Below, piece after piece: positions 37,728 through 57,945 of a stretch of 59,835 nucleotides of DNA. Source of the DNA: Pseudomonadota bacterium (lineage in GTDB: Bacteria; Desulfobacterota; Desulfarculia; Adiutricales; JAGVGV01); contig JAHJTB010000365.1 of NCBI GenBank assembly GCA_018830135.1, positions 1 through 59,835 on the forward strand, written 5' to 3'. The translations under genes and the position numbers were made by a program. Position 1 is the first letter of the stretch. Every line of letters begins with the position of its first letter. Under the pieces are notes generated by a model. It had not been told where the DNA came from, searched no databases, and saw only the letters and a list, made by a program, of their open reading frames with translations.

Positions 37728-40247
37728 GTGCGGAACTTTAACCGTATCCGTATAACAGCCGTCAGGCTTGCGGCCCTCGTTCTGATCGCGGGGCTTTGGG
37801 TCGTCCTGGGCTCCGCCCCGGGCGCCTTGGCCGCCCCCACGGACAAACCCTTGAAGCCTGATGATAAAGCGTCGGCCCAGGCCGAACTGGTCGGGGTGCG
37901 TCTGGGCAGCTTCAACGACTATACGCGCCTGATTTTCTCCTTTTCCACAGGCCTGAAAAACTACCGGGTCCTGCGGGGGGGCGTGGACGAGGTCTGGCTG
38001 GATTTCGGGCCGGGGGGCAGCGAACGTCAGGGCGTTCTGGACCTGGGTAACGACCTGGTGCGGGGCGTGGCCGTGGAAGTGGCCTCCGGACGGATAACCG
38101 CCCGGGTCAAGTTGAATATGACCCAGTTCGATTTTCGTCATTTTGTCGGACCGGACCGGGACCTGGTCGTGCTGGACCTGCGCGCGATCCTGCCCGAACG
38201 GGAGTCTTCCGAAGCCAAGCCGGCCAAAGACAAGGGGCTGTTGCTGGCCATTCCCACGGCTCAGGAAGTGGGGCTCCAAAACCGGGAGTCCCTGCCGTTC
38301 GAGCCGGAGCCCAAATCAGACGCGGCCCTGCTGGCCGGTGCGGCCGATGAAGTCATGGCCGGCAATTTCGAGGCCGCGACCCGGGTGCTCGAACGGTTCA
38401 AAAACACGTTTCCGGACAGTTCCTTGACCGCTCAGGCCCTCTACCTGCTGGCCGATGCGTATTATTTTTCCGCAAAAGACAATTTATCGGGCGTGTTTCA
38501 GAACATCGTCACCGCGTACCAGGACGCGATTCAGGGTTTCCCCGAGGCGCCTCAGGCAGCGCGGGCCAGCCTGATGCGGGCCGGGGCCTATTTTAAAATG
38601 GATTATCTGGGCGAGGCCACGGGGTACCTCAAGCTTCTGATCAAGGACTATCCGAACAGCCCCTACGCCGTGATGGCGCAGGTCTATCTGGGTGAAATCT
38701 ATTTCAAACTGGGCAAGTTCCAGCTGGCCAAGGCCTCCTTCGACCAGGTCCTGGCCCTCTCGCCCCGGGGCCGCTTCTTCCTGGACGCCTACTTCAAACT
38801 GGGCGAGGCCTATTTCAAGGACGGCCTGTACAGCGAGGCCACCGAAGTCTTCAAACAGATTCTCGACATGGACGAGGTCTATTATCTGCATCGGCCGGAT
38901 GTTCTTTATTACATGGGCGAGGGTTACTTTCAGCTCAAACGGCCCGACCTCTCCCGGGACTTCCTCTACCACATCCTGAACATCGAGCCCCAGCACAAGG
39001 CCAAGGACGTGATCCTGGCCCGGATCGGGGACACCTATCGGGAGGAAGGCCGGGACAAGGAGGCCATCAAGGTCTTTTCCCTGGTCAGGCGCATGTTCCC
39101 GGGGACGACCGGGGCCCTGATCAGTCAGTTGCGACTGGCCGACTACGGGGCCTTGCGCAGCGTTTTTCGTCCCGAATCCATCTTCATCGAACTCGAGGAA
39201 GGGACCCTGGAGGCCACGCTGAAGATGTACGAGGAGATCGTGGCCTCCCAGCAGGAGTCTCCGCTGGTCCAGCTGGCCATGTTCAAGATGGGTCTGGCCT
39301 ATTTTTCCAACGAGGACTATCCCCAGACCATCAAGATTCTGGGGGAACTGTTGGACAAATATCCCCGGGGCAACCTGGTTTCGGACGTCAGTTTTATCAT
39401 AAACAAGGCCTTGCTGGCCGAAATGAAGAAGCTCTACGACCTCAGGCAGTATTTCCGGGTCCTGGCCCTTTACTCGGAAGACAAGCGTTTTCTCGACGAA
39501 GCCACCTGGCCCCGGGTTCGGCACTACCTGGCCATGAGCCATCTGGCCCTGGACATGAACGAGGAGGCCGTCCGCCTTTTCGAGGCCAACAAGGGGATGA
39601 CCGAGTACGAGGACGAGCGTCTCCTCGGTCTGGGCCGGGCCCTGCTGGGCATGGGCCGTTACGCCGACGCCTCCAAGGCCTTCGCCGAGTTCCGGCTACG
39701 GTTTCCGGACTACAAGGAGGCCCCGATCACGCTGGTGGAACAGGCCCGGGCCGAGTGGTCCCAAGGCAATCTGAACCTGGCCCTCAGCTACCTGGAGCAG
39801 GCGGTCAAAGATCTGCCCGCCCTGGAAAAGGACGGCAAAATCCAGAGTTTCCTGGGCCAGCTTTATCTGAAGCGAGGTGATTCCGAAAAGGGGATCGAAG
39901 CGCTCGAAAAGGCCCTGGCCGCCGTCCAGAACCAGAAGGATGCGCGTCAGGAGACCTTCCTGGCCCAGTCCAGGTTGGGGCAGGCCTATGCGGCCCTGGG
40001 GAAGAAGGCGGAAGCGGTCAAGGCCCTGGATTCGGCCCTGAAGATCATGCCCGATGATCCGCTGGCCGAGAGCCTGTACCTGATCGCCCAGAGTTTCAAA
40101 AGCCTGGACCTGCCGGACCAGGCTCGAAAGGTCTTCGAACTGATGGAAAAAAGCAAGGAACCATTTTGGCGGGACGTGGCCGTCGAGGAACTACAGGCCG
40201 GCAGCAAGGAAGCCGGTTTTACCCGTCTGCTGAAAGACGGACGTTAG
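37728..40247 (+). CDS. Exported TPR-repeat protein of the flagellar cluster (PflA-like architecture)
   Basis: Signal peptide, beta-rich AMIN-like N-domain (VRLGSFNDYTRLIF), many TPR/YbgF-like repeats (FPDS..AQALYLLADAYY). Confidence 0.8.
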   Translation: MRNFNRIRITAVRLAALVLIAGLWVVLGSAPGALAAPTDKPLKPDDKASAQAELVGVRLGSFNDYTRLIFSFSTGLKNYRVLRGGVDEVWLDFGPGGSERQGVLDLGNDLVRGVAVEVASGRITARVKLNMTQFDFRHFVGPDRDLVVLDLRAILPERESSEAKPAKDKGLLLAIPTAQEVGLQNRESLPFEPEPKSDAALLAGAADEVMAGNFEAATRVLERFKNTFPDSSLTAQALYLLADAYYFSAKDNLSGVFQNIVTAYQDAIQGFPEAPQAARASLMRAGAYFKMDYLGEATGYLKLLIKDYPNSPYAVMAQVYLGEIYFKLGKFQLAKASFDQVLALSPRGRFFLDAYFKLGEAYFKDGLYSEATEVFKQILDMDEVYYLHRPDVLYYMGEGYFQLKRPDLSRDFLYHILNIEPQHKAKDVILARIGDTYREEGRDKEAIKVFSLVRRMFPGTTGALISQLRLADYGALRSVFRPESIFIELEEGTLEATLKMYEEIVASQQESPLVQLAMFKMGLAYFSNEDYPQTIKILGELLDKYPRGNLVSDVSFIINKALLAEMKKLYDLRQYFRVLALYSEDKRFLDEATWPRVRHYLAMSHLALDMNEEAVRLFEANKGMTEYEDERLLGLGRALLGMGRYADASKAFAEFRLRFPDYKEAPITLVEQARAEWSQGNLNLALSYLEQAVKDLPALEKDGKIQSFLGQLYLKRGDSEKGIEALEKALAAVQNQKDARQETFLAQSRLGQAYAALGKKAEAVKALDSALKIMPDDPLAESLYLIAQSFKSLDLPDQARKVFELMEKSKEPFWRDVAVEELQAGSKEAGFTRLLKDGR

Positions 40248-40264
40248 GAGCGGTTCAGGTGACG

Positions 40265-41497
40265 ATGCCCCGATTGAACGATTTCGAGGAACACGATCTG
40301 CTCAACCGGGCCTTTGGCCGGTTCAACGAGATCGCCTCGGCCTTGTGCGATTCGTACGAACGCCTCCATGACGAGGTCGCGGCTCTGAATGTCGAACTGG
40401 CCGAAAAGAACCAAGCCCTGTCATCCAGCCTGGCCGAACAGGAGCGGACCCGCAAGTTTCTGACCCACATCATGGACAATCTGACCACCGGCGTGGTCGT
40501 TCTGGACCCCGAGGGCCGGATCGCCCTGGCCAACCGGGCCGCGACGCGTCTGCTGGGCCAGGCCCTGGACCAGGTCATGGGCCGGGACGTTTTGAGCGTT
40601 CTGGACCCGGCCTCCCTGGCCGGCGACCGGGAACCCGATACGGATCAGGCCCTGGAGTTCGTGGTCTCCCACGGTCCGGACGGCCGTCTGCTCTCCCTGT
40701 CCCTGTCCGCCTTTTCCTGGCCGGGTCGCCAAGGGCTCGGGCGGATCGCTCTGTTCCGGGACGTGACCGACGAAACCCGGATCGGGGCCCAGCGGGAGCG
40801 GACCCAGGTCTTGTCGGCCATGGGGGAGATGGCCGCCGAGGTGGCCCATCAGATTCGCAACCCCCTGGGCAGCCTGGAGCTGTTCGCTTCCATCCTGGCC
40901 CGCGAGGTTTCAGGGGACGACAATCTCGAGACCCTGGTCGAACACCTTCGTTCCGGCGTCAAACAGGTCAACCATCTCATTACCAACTATCTGTCCCTGT
41001 CCCATCCGCCCCGGCCGGAAAAATCGCCGCTTCGCCTGGATCGACTCATCGAGGAGGCCGTGGCCGCGGCGGCCCAGGCCATGAACCTGGCCGGAATAGA
41101 GGCCCGGGTCCGAATCGGCGAGGAACCGGTCTGGGTCGAGGCCGACCGCGACCTGCTGCTCCAGGTCTTCCTCAACCTCATCCTCAACGCCGTCGAGGCC
41201 CTGTCTCCGGGCGGCCGTATCGAGGTGGACCTCCGGCCCGGCCCCCGGGAGGTCGAGGTACTGGTTCGGGATACCGGTCCGGGCATTCCTCGAGAGGACC
41301 TGGACCGGATATTCAATCCGTTTTTCACGACCAAGGAAAAAAAACTCGGCCTGGGGCTGGCGGTCAGCCACCAGGTCGTCGATGCCCATCGAGGACTGAT
41401 CCAGGTCAAGACCCGGCCCGGACAAGGCACGACCGTCAGCGTCACGCTGCCCGTGCTGAAAAAGGAAACCCAGGGGCAAAGGAATTCAGGAGATTGA
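40265..41497 (+). CDS. Cytoplasmic PAS sensor histidine kinase (FleS/FlrB-like)
   Basis: PAS region, AAEVAHQIRNPLG, NLILNA, DTGPGI, FFTTK..LGLGL; start may be GTG 40259. Confidence 0.88.
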   Translation: MPRLNDFEEHDLLNRAFGRFNEIASALCDSYERLHDEVAALNVELAEKNQALSSSLAEQERTRKFLTHIMDNLTTGVVVLDPEGRIALANRAATRLLGQALDQVMGRDVLSVLDPASLAGDREPDTDQALEFVVSHGPDGRLLSLSLSAFSWPGRQGLGRIALFRDVTDETRIGAQRERTQVLSAMGEMAAEVAHQIRNPLGSLELFASILAREVSGDDNLETLVEHLRSGVKQVNHLITNYLSLSHPPRPEKSPLRLDRLIEEAVAAAAQAMNLAGIEARVRIGEEPVWVEADRDLLLQVFLNLILNAVEALSPGGRIEVDLRPGPREVEVLVRDTGPGIPREDLDRIFNPFFTTKEKKLGLGLAVSHQVVDAHRGLIQVKTRPGQGTTVSVTLPVLKKETQGQRNSGD

Positions 41498-41501
41498 ACC
41501 G

Positions 41502-42881
41502 ATGCCAGCCAGACCCATCTTAGTCGCCGATGACGAACCGGGCATGCGCAATGCCCTTTTCGAGGCGCTGACCCGCCAGGGCCACGCCGTGGACCTGGCC
41601 GAGAACGGCCTGGACGCCTTGGAAAAGTTCCAGGCCCAGCCCTTCGACCTGGTCATCACCGACGTCCGCATGCCCCGCATGGACGGGATGCAACTGCTGC
41701 GGGAGATCAAAAAGCGGTCGTCCCGGGTTCCGGTCATCGTGGTCACCGGTTACGGCACCGTGGAAAACGCGGTCGAAGCCATGCGTGAAGGCGCCTTTGA
41801 TTACGTGCTCAAGCCCTTTTCCCTGGACCTGATCGAAGAGATCGTCCTGCGGGCCCTGGGCCAGGCGCCGAGGGCGGACTCCGGCGCCCTGCCGGCGCCG
41901 CTCATGGACAACGGCGACCGGCCCATCATCACCCGGGACGAGCGTTTGAAGCGCATTCTCGACATGGCCCGTTCAGTGGCCTCATCCCAGGCCACCATCC
42001 TGATCGGCGGAGAGTCCGGCACCGGCAAGGAACTTCTGGCTCGTTTCATCCATCACCATTCCGACCGGGTCCATGGCCCCTTCGTGGCCGTCAACTGCGC
42101 CAGCCTGCCCGAAGGGCTGCTGGAAAGCGAGCTGTTCGGCCACGAAAAAGGGTCCTTTACCGGGGCCGTGGCCCGCAAGACCGGCCGCTTCGAACTGGCC
42201 GACGGCGGCACGATTCTGCTCGATGAAATCAGCGAAATGGACATTTCCCTTCAGGCCAAGCTGCTTCGCGTCCTGCAGGAGGGCGAGATCGACCGGGTGG
42301 GCGGCAAGAACCCCATTCAGATCAATGTCCGGGTCATCGCCACGACCAATCGGCATCTCAAGACCTGGGTCGCCGAAGGGAAGTTCCGTGAAGACCTCTA
42401 CTATCGCCTGAACGTCATTCCCCTGACCATCCCCCCGCTCCGCGAACGTCCCGGCGACATACCGGTCCTGACCGACTTTTTCCTGACAAAATACGCCCGG
42501 GTCAACAACCTTCCGGTCAAGACCCTGACCCGGCGCGCTCTCCATCGGCTCGAAAGCCTGCGCTGGCCGGGCAATGTTCGGGAACTCGAGAACATCATCG
42601 CCCGGGGCGTGCTCCTGGCTCGGGCCGCCGAAGTGGACCTGCCCGACCTGTTCATCGATGAGGCCGAGGCGCCCGGGGCAGCCTCGGGAGCATCACCGGC
42701 CCAGGCCGTCGAACTGACGACCATCCGGGAAATGGAGCGGGAGATGATCGAGCGGGCCCTGTCCGAGACCGACGGCAACCGGACGCACGCCGCCAAGATT
42801 TTGGGCATCAGCGTCAGGACCCTGAGGAACAAGTTGGCCGAATATCGAGGCGAAAACGGCCAAACCGGTCTGGCTGCATGA
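41502..42881 (+). CDS. sigma54-dependent response regulator (FleR/FlrC-like)
   Basis: Intact receiver (VADDE, ITDVRMP, KP), GSFTGA, HTH ISVRTLRNKL. Confidence 0.9.
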   Translation: MPARPILVADDEPGMRNALFEALTRQGHAVDLAENGLDALEKFQAQPFDLVITDVRMPRMDGMQLLREIKKRSSRVPVIVVTGYGTVENAVEAMREGAFDYVLKPFSLDLIEEIVLRALGQAPRADSGALPAPLMDNGDRPIITRDERLKRILDMARSVASSQATILIGGESGTGKELLARFIHHHSDRVHGPFVAVNCASLPEGLLESELFGHEKGSFTGAVARKTGRFELADGGTILLDEISEMDISLQAKLLRVLQEGEIDRVGGKNPIQINVRVIATTNRHLKTWVAEGKFREDLYYRLNVIPLTIPPLRERPGDIPVLTDFFLTKYARVNNLPVKTLTRRALHRLESLRWPGNVRELENIIARGVLLARAAEVDLPDLFIDEAEAPGAASGASPAQAVELTTIREMEREMIERALSETDGNRTHAAKILGISVRTLRNKLAEYRGENGQTGLAA

Positions 42882-49112: not shown

Positions 49113-49559
49113 ATGTTCCGCTTCCGACTGGAATTCATGATCCGCTACCGAAGGCAACTGGAGGAGACCGCCATGTTCGAACTGGCCAACCGCATTCGTC
49201 AGGCCAATGAGATCGAAGACCAGCTCGAACAAATACGACGCCGGTCCGCCGAACTGAGCCGCGACGTCCGGGAACGGGCCGCGGACCGGCTGCCCGCTCC
49301 CGTCCTGGCCATGTACCGGGACTACCAGGAACATCTTCGGCAGAGCGGTCATGCCGCCAGGGGCCGGTTGACCCGCGTCGAGGCCCAGATCGAGGAAAAA
49401 CGCCAGGCATTGATCCAGGCCAGCGTGGACCGGAAAACCATCGAACGATTCAAGGAAAAGCAGCACCAGGCCTGGAGCGTGGACGAGGCCAGAAAAGAAC
49501 AGAACATCCTGGATGAAATGGTCACCCTGGCCGAGGCGAGGAAAGAGCATGAGTCCTGA
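49113..49559 (+). CDS. fliJ: Flagellar export chaperone FliJ
   Basis: FRFRLE start, coiled coil, EQ..LDE near the C-terminus. Confidence 0.9.
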   Translation: MFRFRLEFMIRYRRQLEETAMFELANRIRQANEIEDQLEQIRRRSAELSRDVRERAADRLPAPVLAMYRDYQEHLRQSGHAARGRLTRVEAQIEEKRQALIQASVDRKTIERFKEKQHQAWSVDEARKEQNILDEMVTLAEARKEHES

Positions 49560-50256
49560 GGCCAAATCCGGACGAATGAAAAAAACCTGGCTGAATCTCG
49601 AAGCGGTCATCATCATCGGCTTGAGCCTCAAGCTCGTCCTGACCGGCGCCTTCCTCGTCCTGGACGGCGGACAAGGACGGCTTTTTCAGCCTCGACTGGC
49701 CCACGCCCAGGAACAGCCCGCAGCGCCCCCTCAGGCCGCCCCCGCCGCCTCGGACGCCGGCATGACCGAGCAGTACCGGCAGATGCTCGAAGCCCTCAAG
49801 CTCCGGGAACAGGCCATGAAAAAAAAGGACGAACGACTCGATGAACGCGAAAAGGCCCTCGCCGCCCTCGAAACCGAACTCAAAAAGAAAATGGCCGAAC
49901 TGGACGAGACCCGCAAGCAACTCAACGAACTCGTGAAAAAGAACGCGGAACTGGTCCAGGAACAGCAGATTCTGAAAAACGCCCGCATCGAACATCTCGT
50001 CTCGGCCTACAAAAGCATGCGGCCCGAAAGCGCCGGCGCCCTGGTCAACAGCCTCGACGATAACGTCGCCGTGCAAATTCTGGCGGCCATGCCCGGACGA
50101 AGCGCGGGGCAGATTCTGGCCAACGTCGAACCCGTCAAGGCGGCCCGCCTGACCAAGGCCATCTCCATCATGAAAAGCGGCCAGCCGGGCAAGGATGAAA
50201 AAGCGCCGGCCGGAGATGGGGCGGCTCAACCGGCCAAGGCAGCGACCAATCCTTGA
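49549..50256 (+). CDS. MotE/FlbB/YlxF-like flagellar protein (coiled coil plus MgtE-N-like domain)
   Basis: N-terminal hydrophobic helix, coiled coil, YKSMRPESAG...IL.AMP.R.AGQILA. Confidence 0.82.
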   Translation: MSPEAKSGRMKKTWLNLEAVIIIGLSLKLVLTGAFLVLDGGQGRLFQPRLAHAQEQPAAPPQAAPAASDAGMTEQYRQMLEALKLREQAMKKKDERLDEREKALAALETELKKKMAELDETRKQLNELVKKNAELVQEQQILKNARIEHLVSAYKSMRPESAGALVNSLDDNVAVQILAAMPGRSAGQILANVEPVKAARLTKAISIMKSGQPGKDEKAPAGDGAAQPAKAATNP

Positions 50257-52978: not shown

Positions 52979-54733
52979 ATGGGCATTTCAACCGCCATGT
53001 ATACAGGCATAACCGGCCTGTCGGCCATGGGCACGGCCATGTCGGTCATCGGCAACAACATCGCCAACGTGAACACGTTGGGTTTCAAGGCCTCCCGGTC
53101 CAACTTCCAGGACCTCCTCAGCCAGACTTCCCACACGGCCTCGGGCAAGGACCAGATCGGCCGGGGCGTGCAGTTGGGCGCGGTGACCCAGGTCTTCAGC
53201 CAGGGTTCGTATCAGAACTCGGCCCAGGACACGGATGTGGCCATCAGCGGGGAAGGCTTTTTCGTGGTCCGCGATCCGCTGACCCAGGAGGAGTATTACA
53301 CCCGGGCCGGCAATTTCATTTTTGATTCCGCCGGCCGCCTGCAGAGTCCGTCCGGATACGTTCTCCAGGGCTGGGAACTGGACGCCCAGGGCAACCGGGT
53401 CGGCACGCCTTCAGACGTACGGATGATGGCTTTCAACGCCGATCCCCGGGCCACGACCCAGGTCCAGTACATCAGCAACCTGGACTCGACCGCGGAATCG
53501 CAGACGGCGGGCCGCCTGTCCACGGCCTGGGACGGGACCCGGGACCAGCCTATTTACGGAGACTCCTACAGCTATCAGACCTCGGTCCGGGTATACGACG
53601 CCCTGGGCAACGGCCATGATCTCTCGGTCTATTTCGATCCGGACGACGGAAGCGGCTCTGACAACGTCTGGGACTACGCGGTCTGCTGCGATCCGTCCGA
53701 TGACCTGCGGACCGACAACGGCACGATCACGGGCCAGGAATTCGCCAACACCAGCTTCGCCGGCCTGCTCCAGCGCGGGACGATCACCTTTGATCCTCAG
53801 AACGGCAATATCGACGACATCACGGCCGAATACATCTCGGACCTCGACTACGCCATCAACGCGGCGACCTACGGGACCTGGACGGGCACCAGCGCGGTGA
53901 CCTCGGGTGGCGCCTTCACCGGGACCGGGGACAAGACCTGGCAGATCGAAATCAACGGGGCGGGGACCGTCGGGGCCGGCGCCTCCACTTTCCGATGGAG
54001 CGACGACGGCGGGACGAACTGGACCACGGAGAACATCGGAGCGGGTTACGCGGCCGGAACGGACATCACCCTGTCCGACGGCGTGACGGTGAACTTCGGG
54101 GCCGGAACGGTGGTTCTGGCCGACGACTGCAGCGTGGACCTGGCTTCGCCCACGGCGACTTGGACCGCCCAGGCCGTGGACGCGACCACGGGGCATTTCA
54201 ACCTGACCGCGGCCTTCCAGGTGGACCCGGCCACGGGCAATCAGATCGACCAGAGCATGGACATCGATTTCGGCTCCAAATACGGCAACGGAACCTGGAC
54301 CGCCGACAACCTGACCACGACCCAGTACGCCGCGGCCTCGACCACGCTTTTCCAGACCCAGGACGGCTTTGCCTCCGGCTACCTCCAGCGCATCTCGGTA
54401 GACGCCGACGGCGTCCTGGTCGGCACGTATTCCAACGGCCAGAACCAGTCCCTGTTCCAGATCGGACTGGCCATATTCCGCAACCAGTGGGGCCTGCGAA
54501 AGATCGGGGCCAACATGTACATGGAAAGCCGCCTCTCGGGCGAGGCGACCGTCAATCCGCCGGGCGCAGGCGGGACCGGCATCATCGCCCCCAACTCCCT
54601 GGAACAGTCCAACGTGGACCTGGCCGACGAATTCGTGGACATGATCGTCCAGCAGCGCGGCTTTCAGGCCAACTCCAAAATCATCACCACCACGGACTCC
54701 ATGCTGTCCGAGCTGATCCAGATGAAGCGTTAA
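52979..54733 (+). CDS. flgE: Flagellar hook protein FlgE (long form)
   Basis: IGNNIANVNTLGFK, YTRAGNF, VYDALG, LEQSNVDLA.EFV; 584 aa. Confidence 0.95.
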   Translation: MGISTAMYTGITGLSAMGTAMSVIGNNIANVNTLGFKASRSNFQDLLSQTSHTASGKDQIGRGVQLGAVTQVFSQGSYQNSAQDTDVAISGEGFFVVRDPLTQEEYYTRAGNFIFDSAGRLQSPSGYVLQGWELDAQGNRVGTPSDVRMMAFNADPRATTQVQYISNLDSTAESQTAGRLSTAWDGTRDQPIYGDSYSYQTSVRVYDALGNGHDLSVYFDPDDGSGSDNVWDYAVCCDPSDDLRTDNGTITGQEFANTSFAGLLQRGTITFDPQNGNIDDITAEYISDLDYAINAATYGTWTGTSAVTSGGAFTGTGDKTWQIEINGAGTVGAGASTFRWSDDGGTNWTTENIGAGYAAGTDITLSDGVTVNFGAGTVVLADDCSVDLASPTATWTAQAVDATTGHFNLTAAFQVDPATGNQIDQSMDIDFGSKYGNGTWTADNLTTTQYAAASTTLFQTQDGFASGYLQRISVDADGVLVGTYSNGQNQSLFQIGLAIFRNQWGLRKIGANMYMESRLSGEATVNPPGAGGTGIIAPNSLEQSNVDLADEFVDMIVQQRGFQANSKIITTTDSMLSELIQMKR

Positions 54734-54752: not shown

Positions 54753-54778
54753 CGAGGGCCCCCCTTTGGGGGCCCTCG
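54753..54778 (+). terminator. GC-rich hairpin after flgE (terminator or mRNA-stabilising stem)
   Basis: CGAGGGCCCCC-CTTT-GGGGGCCCTCG, 11-bp perfect stem, weak U tract. Confidence 0.55.
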
Positions 54779-55025: not shown

Positions 55026-55041
55026 TGGCACAGGCCTTGCT
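55026..55041 (+). promoter_or_regulatory. sigma54 promoter of the motA-motB-motB-fliL-fliM-fliN-fliO operon
   Basis: TGGCAC-AGGCC-TTGCT. Confidence 0.88.
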
Positions 55042-55079: not shown

Positions 55080-55844
55080 ATGGATATCGCGACCTTCATC
55101 GGCATCATCGCATCCTTCATGCTCCTGATCATTGCGATCATGATGGGAAGCAGCCTTCTGGTCTTCATTGACATACCCTCCGCCCTTATCGTCGTCGGCG
55201 GGACCATCTGCGCGACGATGATCAACTACCCCCTCAAGGACGTCATCCGGACGGTCAATGTGGTCAAGAACGCCTTTTTCGCGAAAAGTCTGACTTTTGG
55301 CGAGATCATCGCCAACTTCGTCAATTTCGCCAACAAGGCCCGCAAGGAGGGCATTTTGGCCCTGGAATCCAGCCTGCCGGAGATTTCCGACGAATTTCTG
55401 AAAAAGGGGCTCCAGTTGACCATCGACGGCCTGGAACCCCAGGCCATCAACGAGATCATGGAGACGGAGATCGCTTTTATCGAGGACCGGCACCGGCTGG
55501 GAGCGGAGTTGTTCCAGACCATGGGCACCTTCGCCCCGGCCTTCGGCATGATCGGCACTCTGATCGGGCTGGTTCAGATGCTCCAGTCCATGGACGACCC
55601 GGGCTCGATCGGCCCGGCCATGGCCGTGGCCCTGATCACGACTTTTTACGGCGCGGTTATGGCCAACGTCCTGTTCCTGCCCATTTCGGGCAAACTCAAG
55701 ACCCGGAGCAAGGAGGAGAGCCTGGTCAAGGAGATGATCATCCAGGGGATCATGTCCCTGTCGCGGGGCGACAATCCCCGGATCATCGAGCAGAAGCTCC
55801 ATTCCTTCCTACCGCCGAACCTGAGGGTTTCCGCGTTCAAGTAA
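55080..55844 (+). CDS. motA: Flagellar stator A subunit (MotA/PomA type)
   Basis: ARKEGILALE, APAFGMIGTLIGL, AVALITTFYG. Confidence 0.95.
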   Translation: MDIATFIGIIASFMLLIIAIMMGSSLLVFIDIPSALIVVGGTICATMINYPLKDVIRTVNVVKNAFFAKSLTFGEIIANFVNFANKARKEGILALESSLPEISDEFLKKGLQLTIDGLEPQAINEIMETEIAFIEDRHRLGAELFQTMGTFAPAFGMIGTLIGLVQMLQSMDDPGSIGPAMAVALITTFYGAVMANVLFLPISGKLKTRSKEESLVKEMIIQGIMSLSRGDNPRIIEQKLHSFLPPNLRVSAFK

Positions 55845-55859: not shown

Positions 55860-56657
55860 ATGGCACGCAAAGAGCCGGAAGAAAAGCCGGAATGGGAACT
55901 GAGCAACATCGCCCTGATGATGTTCACCTCCCTGATGATCATTCTGCTGGCTTTTTTCATCATGCTCAACTCGATGGCCGTGGTCGACGAAAAACGGCAG
56001 ATATCGGCTCTCGGCTCCGTGCTGGGGGCCTTCGGCCTGCTGCCCGGCGGCCTGTCGCCCACGCAGGAGGAGGCCGCCAAATCCGTGGCCCCTCCGACCG
56101 GGCCGATGGAACCGGTCAAGACGGACCTCCAGCTCATCCGGGACGTTTTATCCAACCGGGTCGTTTCGGAAAGTTTCAACATCCTGCGCGGGAGGAGCCG
56201 GGAGATCATCAGCCTCCAGGACGCGGTGCTATTTCCGCCGGACGGAGTCGACATCCTGCCCGAGGCCGAGCCGGTGCTCATGGACATCGCCCACATTCTC
56301 CAGGGGTCCGATTACCCGATCACTATCGAGGGACACACTGACGACCGGCCGCCCCGCACGGAAGGCTTCAAGGACAACTGGCACGTCTCGGCCATGCGCG
56401 CGGTGGCCATCCTGCGATTTTTCACGGAAAAGGGCGGCCTGGACCCGAACCGGATGACCGCTTTCGGCTACGCGGGCTTCAGCCCGATCGCGCCCAACAA
56501 TTCGCCGCTGAACCGGGCCAAGAACCGGCGCATCGACCTGGTCCTGGACAATTCCCACCGGCTGCGCGTTCTCAAGCACGAGGAACGCTTTCGGCGGGAT
56601 CGGCGTTTCGAGTTCCGAGGATTCAGCTTCAAGCTTTTCGGCAAGGACGGGGAATGA
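55860..56657 (+). CDS. motB: Flagellar stator B-like subunit 1 (OmpA/MotB domain) lacking the conserved TM aspartate
   Basis: TM MMFTSLMIILLAFF; OmpA domain EGHTDD...NWHVSAMRA...NRRIDL. Confidence 0.85.
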   Translation: MARKEPEEKPEWELSNIALMMFTSLMIILLAFFIMLNSMAVVDEKRQISALGSVLGAFGLLPGGLSPTQEEAAKSVAPPTGPMEPVKTDLQLIRDVLSNRVVSESFNILRGRSREIISLQDAVLFPPDGVDILPEAEPVLMDIAHILQGSDYPITIEGHTDDRPPRTEGFKDNWHVSAMRAVAILRFFTEKGGLDPNRMTAFGYAGFSPIAPNNSPLNRAKNRRIDLVLDNSHRLRVLKHEERFRRDRRFEFRGFSFKLFGKDGE

Positions 56658-56663
56658 TCGATT

Positions 56664-57401
56664 ATGGCCGGCAAGAAAAAAGAGTCCGCCGCGAGCCAGA
56701 TCAACCCCCTGGGATACATGACCACGTTTTCAGACCTGGTCACCCTGCTGATGACCTTTTTCGTGCTGATGATCACCATGTCCTCCATGGACAACAAGGC
56801 CATCAAGGAGGCCTTCGGCCTGTTCACCGGCGGGTCCGGCCCGCTGGCCTTCACCCAGGACGCCAAGCTCCAGGCCCTCAGCCAGATCATCGACCGGAGC
56901 GAAAATATTCCCTCGAAGATGCTGCTCAGCCAGAGCGAGATCAAGGAAACGGTTTTCCAGTTTCAGGATGTCGATTACCAGAAGCTCATGGAACTGGTGG
57001 ACCGGGATATTACGGTCACCATCGACGAGCGCGGCATGGTCATTCAGATGGCGGACTACATCCTGTTCGAGGAAGGCAGCGCCAAGCTGAAGATGGAATA
57101 CCTGCCGATTTTAAACCGGCTGGCGCTCGTGCTCAGGGGCATGCGTTATCCGATCTCCATCGAGGGCCATACCTCGACGGGGGAGATCGAGAATCCCAAG
57201 GACCCGCAGGGCTGGATGCTTTCGCTGGACCGGGCCATCGCCGTGCTCGAGTATTTCACGACGCAGGAGGGTCTGCTCGAGGAAAGTTTCCGGGTGGCCG
57301 GTTACGGGCCGTCCAAGCCGCTCTATCCGAACGACACGGTGGAAAACCAGGCCAGAAACCGCCGGATAGAGATCGTTCTTTACAAACGGCGGATCGGTTA
57401 G
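56664..57401 (+). CDS. motB: Flagellar stator B subunit 2 (MotB/PomB type)
   Basis: TM YMTTFSDLVTLLMTFFVL with the conserved Asp; OmpA domain EGHTST...LSLDRA...NRRIEI. Confidence 0.9.
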   Translation: MAGKKKESAASQINPLGYMTTFSDLVTLLMTFFVLMITMSSMDNKAIKEAFGLFTGGSGPLAFTQDAKLQALSQIIDRSENIPSKMLLSQSEIKETVFQFQDVDYQKLMELVDRDITVTIDERGMVIQMADYILFEEGSAKLKMEYLPILNRLALVLRGMRYPISIEGHTSTGEIENPKDPQGWMLSLDRAIAVLEYFTTQEGLLEESFRVAGYGPSKPLYPNDTVENQARNRRIEIVLYKRRIG

Positions 57402-57465: not shown

Positions 57466-57945
57466 ATGGGCAAGATAATTATCATCGCGGTCGTGGTCGT
57501 GGCGGTCCTGGCGGGCGGGGCCGTGGCACTGAGGTTCGTGGCGCCCGGACTGATTCCCGGCTGGGGAGAAAAAGCGGCCGCCCCCGATGCCGCGACCCAG
57601 GCGGAATCTGCCGGGAAGGAGGCGGACAAAATGTTGGTTTTGGTGCCGCTTCAGTCCTTTATCGTCAATCTGGCCGATCCCGGCGGCAAGCGCTATCTGA
57701 AACTGACCCTGACCCTCGAGGTCCGGGACGCCGTGATCCAGGGGGAAGTGAACAGTCATCTGCCCCAGATTCGCGACTCGATCCTGCTCCTTCTGTCCAG
57801 CCTGACCTTCGAGGAGATCAGCACCGTGGGCGGGAAGGACGCCCTGAGGGCCAAGATCAAGAGCCGCTGCAACACGGTTCTTGCCAGCAGCGGCGGGATT
57901 CCCAAGGTCCATAATATCTATTTCTCCGAGTTCGTGGTCCAGTAG
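57466..57945 (+). CDS. fliL: Flagellar basal body-associated protein FliL
   Basis: N-terminal TM, FIVNLAD..G.RYLK, IRD.I, YFSEFVVQ. Confidence 0.93.
   Translation: MGKIIIIAVVVVAVLAGGAVALRFVAPGLIPGWGEKAAAPDAATQAESAGKEADKMLVLVPLQSFIVNLADPGGKRYLKLTLTLEVRDAVIQGEVNSHLPQIRDSILLLLSSLTFEEISTVGGKDALRAKIKSRCNTVLASSGGIPKVHNIYFSEFVVQ

Follow-up and report, generated by a model that had tools for sequence, protein, structure and literature searches.

Why should a flagellar operon with a single gene for the A subunit of the stator carry two genes for the B subunit, one of which lacks the residue on which stators are held to depend? The question is raised by the right end of a 59,835-nucleotide stretch of DNA (contig JAHJTB010000365.1 of assembly GCA_018830135.1, from a Pseudomonadota bacterium of the Desulfarculia), called the window here, where a motA gene is followed on the + strand by two tandem motB genes, motB1 and motB2. 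The conserved ion-binding aspartate of the MotB membrane helix (D32 in E. coli, D22 in Campylobacter jejuni) is regarded as the single residue that a stator cannot do without, and in current 5:2 models the two aspartates of the MotB dimer alternate. The original prediction, made from this DNA, was that neither paralogue is complete: MotB1 was said to have lost the channel aspartate and MotB2 the peptidoglycan-binding motif, leaving one chain to anchor and the other to conduct. Comparison of related sequences indicates that what is conserved is one chain with the channel aspartate and one without it, not one anchor and one channel.

The positions and residues on which the prediction was built were all correct. 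Codon 24 of motB1 is TCC (55929-55931) and places a serine, in the context MFTSLM, where the channel aspartate belongs. Codon 24 of motB2 is GAC (56733-56735), an aspartate in the context TFSDLV. These two residues are aligned with each other by BLASTP (28% identity, E 2e-27), and with phmmer both align with the same aspartate of the solved Clostridium sporogenes MotB (6ysf/8ucs), which MotB1 and MotB2 match over their full length at E values of about 1e-26. A relocated acidic residue in the MotB1 helix was considered and rejected, as there is none in residues 17-42; Asp43, where the helix meets the periplasm, has a conserved counterpart in Asp42 of MotB2. The MotB_plug match of MotB1 is weak (PF13677, 26.1 bits against a cut-off of 24, residues 19-53), compared with 51.9 bits for MotB2, and the OmpA domain (PF00691) scores 56.4 bits in MotB1 and 56.1 bits in MotB2. 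At the peptidoglycan-binding site MotB1 keeps GHTD (Asp codon GAC at 56340), NW..S..RA and NRR. MotB2 reads GHTS in place of GHTD, with Ser171 encoded by TCG (57174-57176), and has GW where NW is usual; the arginine of the RA motif and NRR are kept. The two genes are separated by 6 bp (56658-56663).

A scan of species-representative genomes returned 292 relatives, and the locus counts given here rest on the best 80 loci. Their records are labelled Desulfarculia, Adiutricales, Desulfobacterales, Desulfatiglandales and Desulfomonilia, with a few metagenome-assembled genomes (MAGs) labelled Nitrospirae or Nitrospinaceae, and include two cultured carriers, Dethiosulfatarculus sandiegensis and Desulfocarbo indianensis. 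The channel aspartate was absent from all 80 MotB1 orthologues (Ser in 66, Ala in 13, Cys in 1) and present in all 76 partner MotB2 proteins. Loss of the aspartate from MotB1 is thus more than chance. Among 5.8 billion proteins searched, about 60 close MotB1 homologues came to light, each with a helix of the FT[SA]L type. When 1.84 billion cluster representatives were searched with a profile, 128 of the best 150 listed were of single-domain length and were aligned, the other 22 being left out; 83 lacked the aspartate (Ser 51, Ala 28, Gly 2, Thr 1, Asn 1), 43 had it and 2 were gapped. At least 83 Asp-less clusters at 50% identity therefore exist among the best 128 single-domain representatives. 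Within the window's order, 44 of 50 genomes have a full-length MotB1-type match of at least 200 bits, and one more has a truncated match. The top match checked as Asp-bearing, a second MotB of the host genome (on contig C490, described below), scored about 180 bits, and a match of 186 bits in a closed genome of the same family (G046) is presumed, uninspected, to be canonical. Across 301 genomes evenly sampled from the phylum, 38 gave a MotB1 match at E<=1e-57, the near-threshold matches among them not having been inspected for the aspartate.

The two genes are inherited together. The order flgE-motA-motB1-motB2-fliL-fliM recurs across the Thermodesulfobacteriota, and motB2 lies directly 3′ of motB1 wherever the sequence extends far enough (75 of 79 loci). 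Of the four exceptions, three are contigs that clearly stop soon past motB1, and the fourth has about 640 nt left, too short for a complete motB2. The gap between the genes has a median of 6 nt, is 30 nt or less in 64 of 74 loci, and is an overlap in 24. A tree was built from 38 MotB1 sequences, 38 MotB2 sequences (every second locus was taken) and 24 other MotBs, these being 22 database proteins and the two other MotBs of the host genome. MotB1 and MotB2 each formed one clan, with Shimodaira-Hasegawa-like approximate likelihood ratio (SH-aLRT) support of 95 in both cases, and the inner groupings mirrored each other, which suggests one old duplication followed by co-inheritance of both copies. 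Mean pairwise identity over 72 loci was 0.365 for MotB1, 0.374 for MotB2 and 0.636 for MotA, and over the same loci the pairwise divergences of MotB1 and MotB2 were correlated (r=0.93).

These figures bear on the notion that MotB1 is a functionless relic, kept only through its linkage to the operon. The protein does lack the one residue held essential in its family, but by the mean identities it evolves no faster than MotB2, its reading frame is intact in 79 related loci, the Asp-less clusters are numerous and several of its motifs are invariant; we find a relic barely credible. The related idea that motB1 is a pseudogene or decaying copy was ruled out by the intact frames, the conservation and the MotB2-like rate. 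The original prediction depended on the orthologues of motB1 neither retaining the aspartate nor decaying, and they do neither. As judged from these alignments, MotB1 is an old, conserved Asp-less family under purifying selection.

The most conserved region of MotB1 is its membrane helix (mean top-residue frequency 0.70), which keeps the MotB pattern F..LL.FF.L; the plug region reaches 0.64, compared with 0.52 in MotB2. Such a pattern is to be expected if the helix packs within MotA and does more than tether the protein. MotB1 might nevertheless stand outside the MotA ring, as a membrane-tethered OmpA-like scaffold that places or stabilises stators in the manner of FliL or of the Vibrio T-ring protein MotY, which bears an OmpA-like domain. 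The very constant length from membrane to OmpA domain in MotB1 (132 +/- 2.6 residues) could serve docking, and a C-terminal helix and beta-hairpin with conserved aromatic residues could dock another periplasmic structure. We consider such a scaffold distinctly unlikely, because a plain tether is not expected to keep the MotB helix pattern as its most conserved segment, Pfam still scores that segment as MotB_plug, and the loss of the peptidoglycan-site arginine from 34 of 80 MotB1 proteins is a poor fit to an anchor.

The C-terminal extension of MotB1 (residues 234-265, encoded by 56559-56654) is specific to the family and absent from MotB2 and from solved MotBs. Its aromatic pattern F.F.GF.F..F is conserved, and Phe257 is nearly invariant. 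An AlphaFold2 model of MotB1, with a mean predicted local distance difference test (pLDDT) score of 82, consists of a helix (11-57), a disordered linker (59-86), an OmpA-like domain (89-230), a second helix (232-246) and a beta-hairpin (249-258). Its best fold matches are to a fragment of DVU_2228 of Desulfovibrio vulgaris (3khn) and to the periplasmic domains of Bacillus subtilis MotS and Vibrio PomB. DVU_2228, deposited as a 'putative MotB like protein', is the best of these (E 9.7e-16, template-modelling score 0.83 on the target), and its sequence matches MotB1 (5e-22) far more strongly than MotB2 (7e-11). This structure, the deposited chain of which is a periplasmic fragment without the N-terminus, may represent the Asp-less family with its periplasmic domain already solved; a literature search found no functional paper on DVU_2228.

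A predicted complex of MotB2 with MotB1, made with an alignment of 36 rows per chain, had a median score of 0.65 compared with 0.00 for the best control. Of 80 solved complexes 58 attain that mark, as do 2 of 110 mismatched pairs. Separate runs agreed in at least 83% of contacts, with a partner pLDDT of at least 68. In the model the two chains touch along their membrane helices (residues 16-40) and through their OmpA-like domains, and residue 24 lies outside the interface. In prediction, then, MotB1 and MotB2 can adopt the arrangement of a MotB dimer; preference over homodimers is not implied. The two B proteins may instead form separate units, with a non-conducting MotB1 homodimer in MotA5 standing beside, or competing with, MotA5(MotB2)2 as a brake, placeholder, load-dependent reserve or static strut. 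The conserved MotB-like helix and plug fit insertion of a MotB1 homodimer into MotA as well as they fit a heterodimer, MotB family members are homodimeric in all solved units (6ysf, 8ucs, 6ysl, 8bri), and the linker lengths of MotB1 and MotB2 do not co-vary. Separate units nonetheless seem to us somewhat unlikely. Besides the contrast between the modelled pair and its best control, a MotB1 homodimer without the arginine (34/80) or the aspartate (6/80) of the peptidoglycan site would be poorly anchored, yet such MotB1 proteins are conserved; and given a single motA and closely coupled translation, the two B chains would be expected to mix in dimers unless something prevented it.

To place the anchor residues we used the OmpA-like domain of Acinetobacter baumannii OmpA (3td5), which has the same fold as the MotB1 model. 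Asp271 and Arg286 of that domain bind diaminopimelate, according to a review (PMC12108004), and from the shared motif we equate them with the GHTD aspartate and the RA arginine. The aspartate was kept in 69 of 75 full-length MotB2 rows, the others having Asn (5) or, in the window, Ser (1), and in 74 of 80 MotB1 proteins, 6 having lost it. The arginine was kept in all 75 MotB2 rows and in 46 of 80 MotB1 proteins, being replaced in the other 34 by Met (25), Lys (3), Ser (3), Gln (2) or Trp (1). In this the proteins depart from A. baumannii OmpA, at the aspartate in the window's MotB2 and at the arginine, by Met, Lys, Ser or Gln, in many MotB1 orthologues. Both residues were present in both chains in 39 of 75 loci, in MotB1 only in 6, in MotB2 only in 30, and in neither chain in none. 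The absence of a locus with the site lost in both chains is suggestive, though not proof, of an anchor shared between them.

The original prediction had expected loss of GHTD from copy 2 to accompany loss of the membrane aspartate from copy 1. The latter loss proved universal among the orthologues examined, but the former is confined to 6 of 75 partners, and reciprocal loss is not a conserved design. GHTS occurs only in the window's MotB2, once in 75 locus partners and once in 119 database homologues, in which the column reads Asp in 116, Gly in 2 and Ser in 1, the sole Ser being the window's own protein; the nearest homologue (66% identical) has GHTD. A compensated frameshift was rejected as the origin of GHTS, since the downstream frame (W, LS..RA) stays aligned with the proteins of relatives. 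On this comparison of the window's DNA with the relatives' protein alignment, GHTS is taken to have arisen by substitution, and it appears as a lineage-specific detail of this genome. The asparagine of NW..LS..RA has a wider history: it is Ala, rarely Gly, in the whole clade nearest the window (homologues P0267-P0315 and loci L011-L016, with the distinctive loop GHTD.S..EGG....AW), and Ala in 49 of the 119 homologues. Remodelling of the MotB2 peptidoglycan site across this clade, as read from the alignment, predates the Asp-to-Ser change in the window. The Asn-for-Asp substitutions fall in one clade of five MAGs (loci L019, L021, L024, L025 and L026), where the flanking sequences read GFTN, SHTN, CHTN or AYTN, NRR of MotB2 has become NAR or NSR, and the partner MotB1 keeps all motifs; in sequence terms this is a second, independent case of the window's pattern.

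A strict division of labour, in which MotB1 anchors, MotB2 conducts, neither works alone and this reciprocity is the reason for the pair, would account for the window, with its full GHTD/NW/RA in MotB1 and GHTS/GW in MotB2, and for the complete MotB1 in all five loci with Asn for the MotB2 aspartate. It accords poorly with the singleton status of GHTS, with the retention of aspartate and arginine in most or all MotB2 proteins, and with the 30 of 75 loci in which MotB1, not MotB2, is incomplete; we rate it very unlikely. 'MotB1 anchors, MotB2 conducts' cannot be a general rule, because MotB2 mostly keeps the aspartate and arginine and it is MotB1 that is more prone to lose a residue of the peptidoglycan site. 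A conserved rule of reciprocal loss was thereby ruled out. Because GHTS is a singleton and MotB2 is mostly complete, the MotB1-MotB2 pair long predates the GHTS substitution and is independent of it.

The host genome, a MAG in 562 contigs with 95.7% completeness and 6.2% contamination, contains two more complete motA-motB pairs, on contigs C490 (931-2443, - strand) and C509 (709-2295, + strand). The MotB proteins of both keep the channel aspartate, the GxTD aspartate, NW..S..RA and NRR. The organism thus has three stator gene sets. The closed genome G046 has adjacent motB1 and motB2 genes plus two further MotB-like matches; as it has the same multiplicity, the extra sets seem to be a feature of the group and not a product of contamination. 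With two complete classical pairs present, MotB2 is not the cell's only route to an anchored stator.

From the MotB-like conservation of the MotB1 helix, the strict linkage and tight junctions of the genes, the equal rates, the pattern of anchor loss and the dimer model, we infer that motA, motB1 and motB2 encode one stator system in which MotB1 takes a B position in the MotA ring, probably paired with MotB2. We put this forward tentatively, at a little short of an even chance. MotB2, as bearer of the channel aspartate, would be the ion-coupling chain. MotB1, with its MotA-facing helix, plug-like helix and OmpA-like fold retained and a neutral Ser, Ala or Cys at the aspartate site, would take one of the two axle positions in the MotA pentamer beside MotB2 (MotA5-MotB1-MotB2), so that the mixed unit would have one ion-binding carboxylate instead of two. 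The cell-wall anchor could be supplied by either chain, the MotB1 motif being intact in this genome and the reverse holding in many relatives.

Several observations weigh against this arrangement. In E. coli, MotB proteins with Asp32 substituted are non-functional and dominant-negative, so a mixed dimer might be inactive. Motility need not rely on the trio, since the genome encodes two other classical motAB pairs. The failure to find both chains defective at one locus falls short of significance (Fisher p=0.075, kinship uncorrected), and the six MotB2 losses represent two lineages or events. The length from the membrane position to GHTD, 148 +/- 8.9 residues in MotB2 against the nearly constant value in MotB1, showed no positive co-variation between partners (Pearson 0.05, Spearman -0.27). 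Finally, since homodimers of MotB have been solved, the score of the MotB1-MotB2 model may reflect only the likeness of the two chains, and MotB1-MotB1 and MotB2-MotB2 dimers remain compatible with it.

A D22N variant, as described in a review (PMC9389320), gives a basis for treating a neutral residue as a mimic of the protonated state. If MotB1 is such a mimic, a mixed axle could let the MotA ring pass one step in every two without an ion. A natural MotA5-MotB1-MotB2 motor with a single aspartate, in which the Ser or Ala chain is a permanently 'protonated' half of the axle, is possible in our view, if doubtful.

Canonical stators, MotA5MotB2, PomA5PomB2 or MotPS (6ysf/8ucs from C. sporogenes, 6ysl from B. 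subtilis, 8bri from Vibrio), resemble the present system in that a flagellar operon encodes a MotA-type protein and next to it one of MotB type, and in the single membrane helix, plug region and OmpA-like domain that both B proteins share with them. They differ in that here there are two different B genes per A gene, one of which encodes a chain that is uniformly Asp-less and has a C-terminal helix-hairpin. The gene layout is that of the motA/motB1/motB2 operon of Aquifex aeolicus, where the periplasmic regions of the two B proteins also differ strongly. The study of that operon (Takekawa et al. 2015, PMC4525482) gives the membrane and N-terminal regions of the Aquifex MotBs as 97% identical and each protein as working as a chimera with E. 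coli MotB, from which both would be conducting chains; in the window, by contrast, the membrane regions differ and MotB1 lacks the aspartate. The Myxococcus gliding motor AglR-AglQ-AglS also combines a MotA/TolQ-type pentamer with two different B-type chains. An AglQ-AglS heterodimer has been placed in the AglR5 channel by structural prediction (PMC11761067), and AglQ and AglS are TolR-like and both predicted to carry a mid-membrane aspartate (PMC9389320). The gliding motor, the stoichiometry of which is still unsolved, thus differs in having two predicted Asp-bearing chains and in not being flagellar. Full-text searches of the literature, which did not extend to supplements where such variants might be listed, gave no description of an Asp-less MotB or of a mixed MotB axle. 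The main text of a 2025 survey of MotAB evolution in mBio (PMC12505986) has no occurrence of aspartate, D32, Desulf, 'two MotB' or heterodimer, and its supplements might list variants.

The sequence element of the single sigma-54 promoter proposed for motA and both motB genes was present in perfect form (Table 1). A relaxed -24/-12 motif, for which the background is 0.02 per 310 nt, lies 5′ of motA in 57 of 69 related loci; 40 of the 69 have the strict form. In NCBIfam MotA scores highest against PomA (285 bits) and MotP (278 bits), in each case under the equivalog cut-off. A perfect 10-bp GC-rich inverted repeat, GAGGGCCCCC TTT GGGGGCCCTC, lies at 54755-54777, 22 nt past the flgE stop codon, and is not followed by a T-run. 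Between flgE and the motA promoter it may act as a terminator, or as a hairpin that stabilises RNA. The flagellar cluster forms the right end of the window on the + strand, and after the gene for a sigma-54 activator its order is fliF, fliG, fliH, fliI, an unassigned open reading frame, fliK, flgD, flgE, motA, motB1, motB2, fliL, fliM, fliN and a further open reading frame. The unassigned frame (49513-50256, 247 aa) has no Pfam match at E<=1e-4; FliJ is expected between fliI and fliK, but is usually much shorter. Directly 5′ of the flagellar genes (37728-42881) are genes for an 839-aa TPR protein, a PAS histidine kinase and the sigma-54 response-regulator activator, and these three are likely regulators of the local sigma-54 promoters.

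Table 1. Features of the stator operon and its surroundings in the window
Feature	Position	Strand	Remarks
Sigma-54 response-regulator activator gene	41502-42881	+	Upstream of the flagellar genes
flgE (hook)	52979-54733	+	Pfam FlgE_D2, Flg_bbr_C, Flg_bb_rod
Sigma-54 type promoter	55026-55040	+	Perfect TGGCAC-N5-TTGC (-24/-12), predicted from sequence; 54 nt 5′ of the motA ATG
motA	55080-55844	+	254 aa; only A subunit of the operon, PomA/MotP-like; Pfam MotA_ExbB, 112 bits
motB1	55860-56657	+	265 aa; Asp-less MotB paralogue; Pfam MotB_plug and OmpA
motB2	56664-57401	+	245 aa; Asp-bearing MotB; Pfam MotB_plug and OmpA
fliL	57466-57945	+	Stator-associated; Pfam FliL, 97.9 bits; 3′ of motB2 in nearly all related loci

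Encoded in the main flagellar operon with motA on one side and an Asp-bearing motB on the other, the Asp-less MotB would be either part of a natural one-aspartate motor or a built-in non-conducting subunit, and either bears on how stators step, are gated and are anchored. That losses at the anchor site are scattered over one chain or the other, and never over both in 75 loci, hints that the two chains share one anchor. If the single-aspartate unit exists, ion coupling would be limited to alternate 36-degree steps of the MotA ring, and both the ions spent and the maximum torque per turn would be halved. Such a unit would be a low-cost gear suiting energy-limited anaerobes, and nature would have supplied in it a test of the alternating-site model for 5:2 rotary motors. 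With Desulfocarbo indianensis and Dethiosulfatarculus sandiegensis as cultured carriers, the question is open to experiment.

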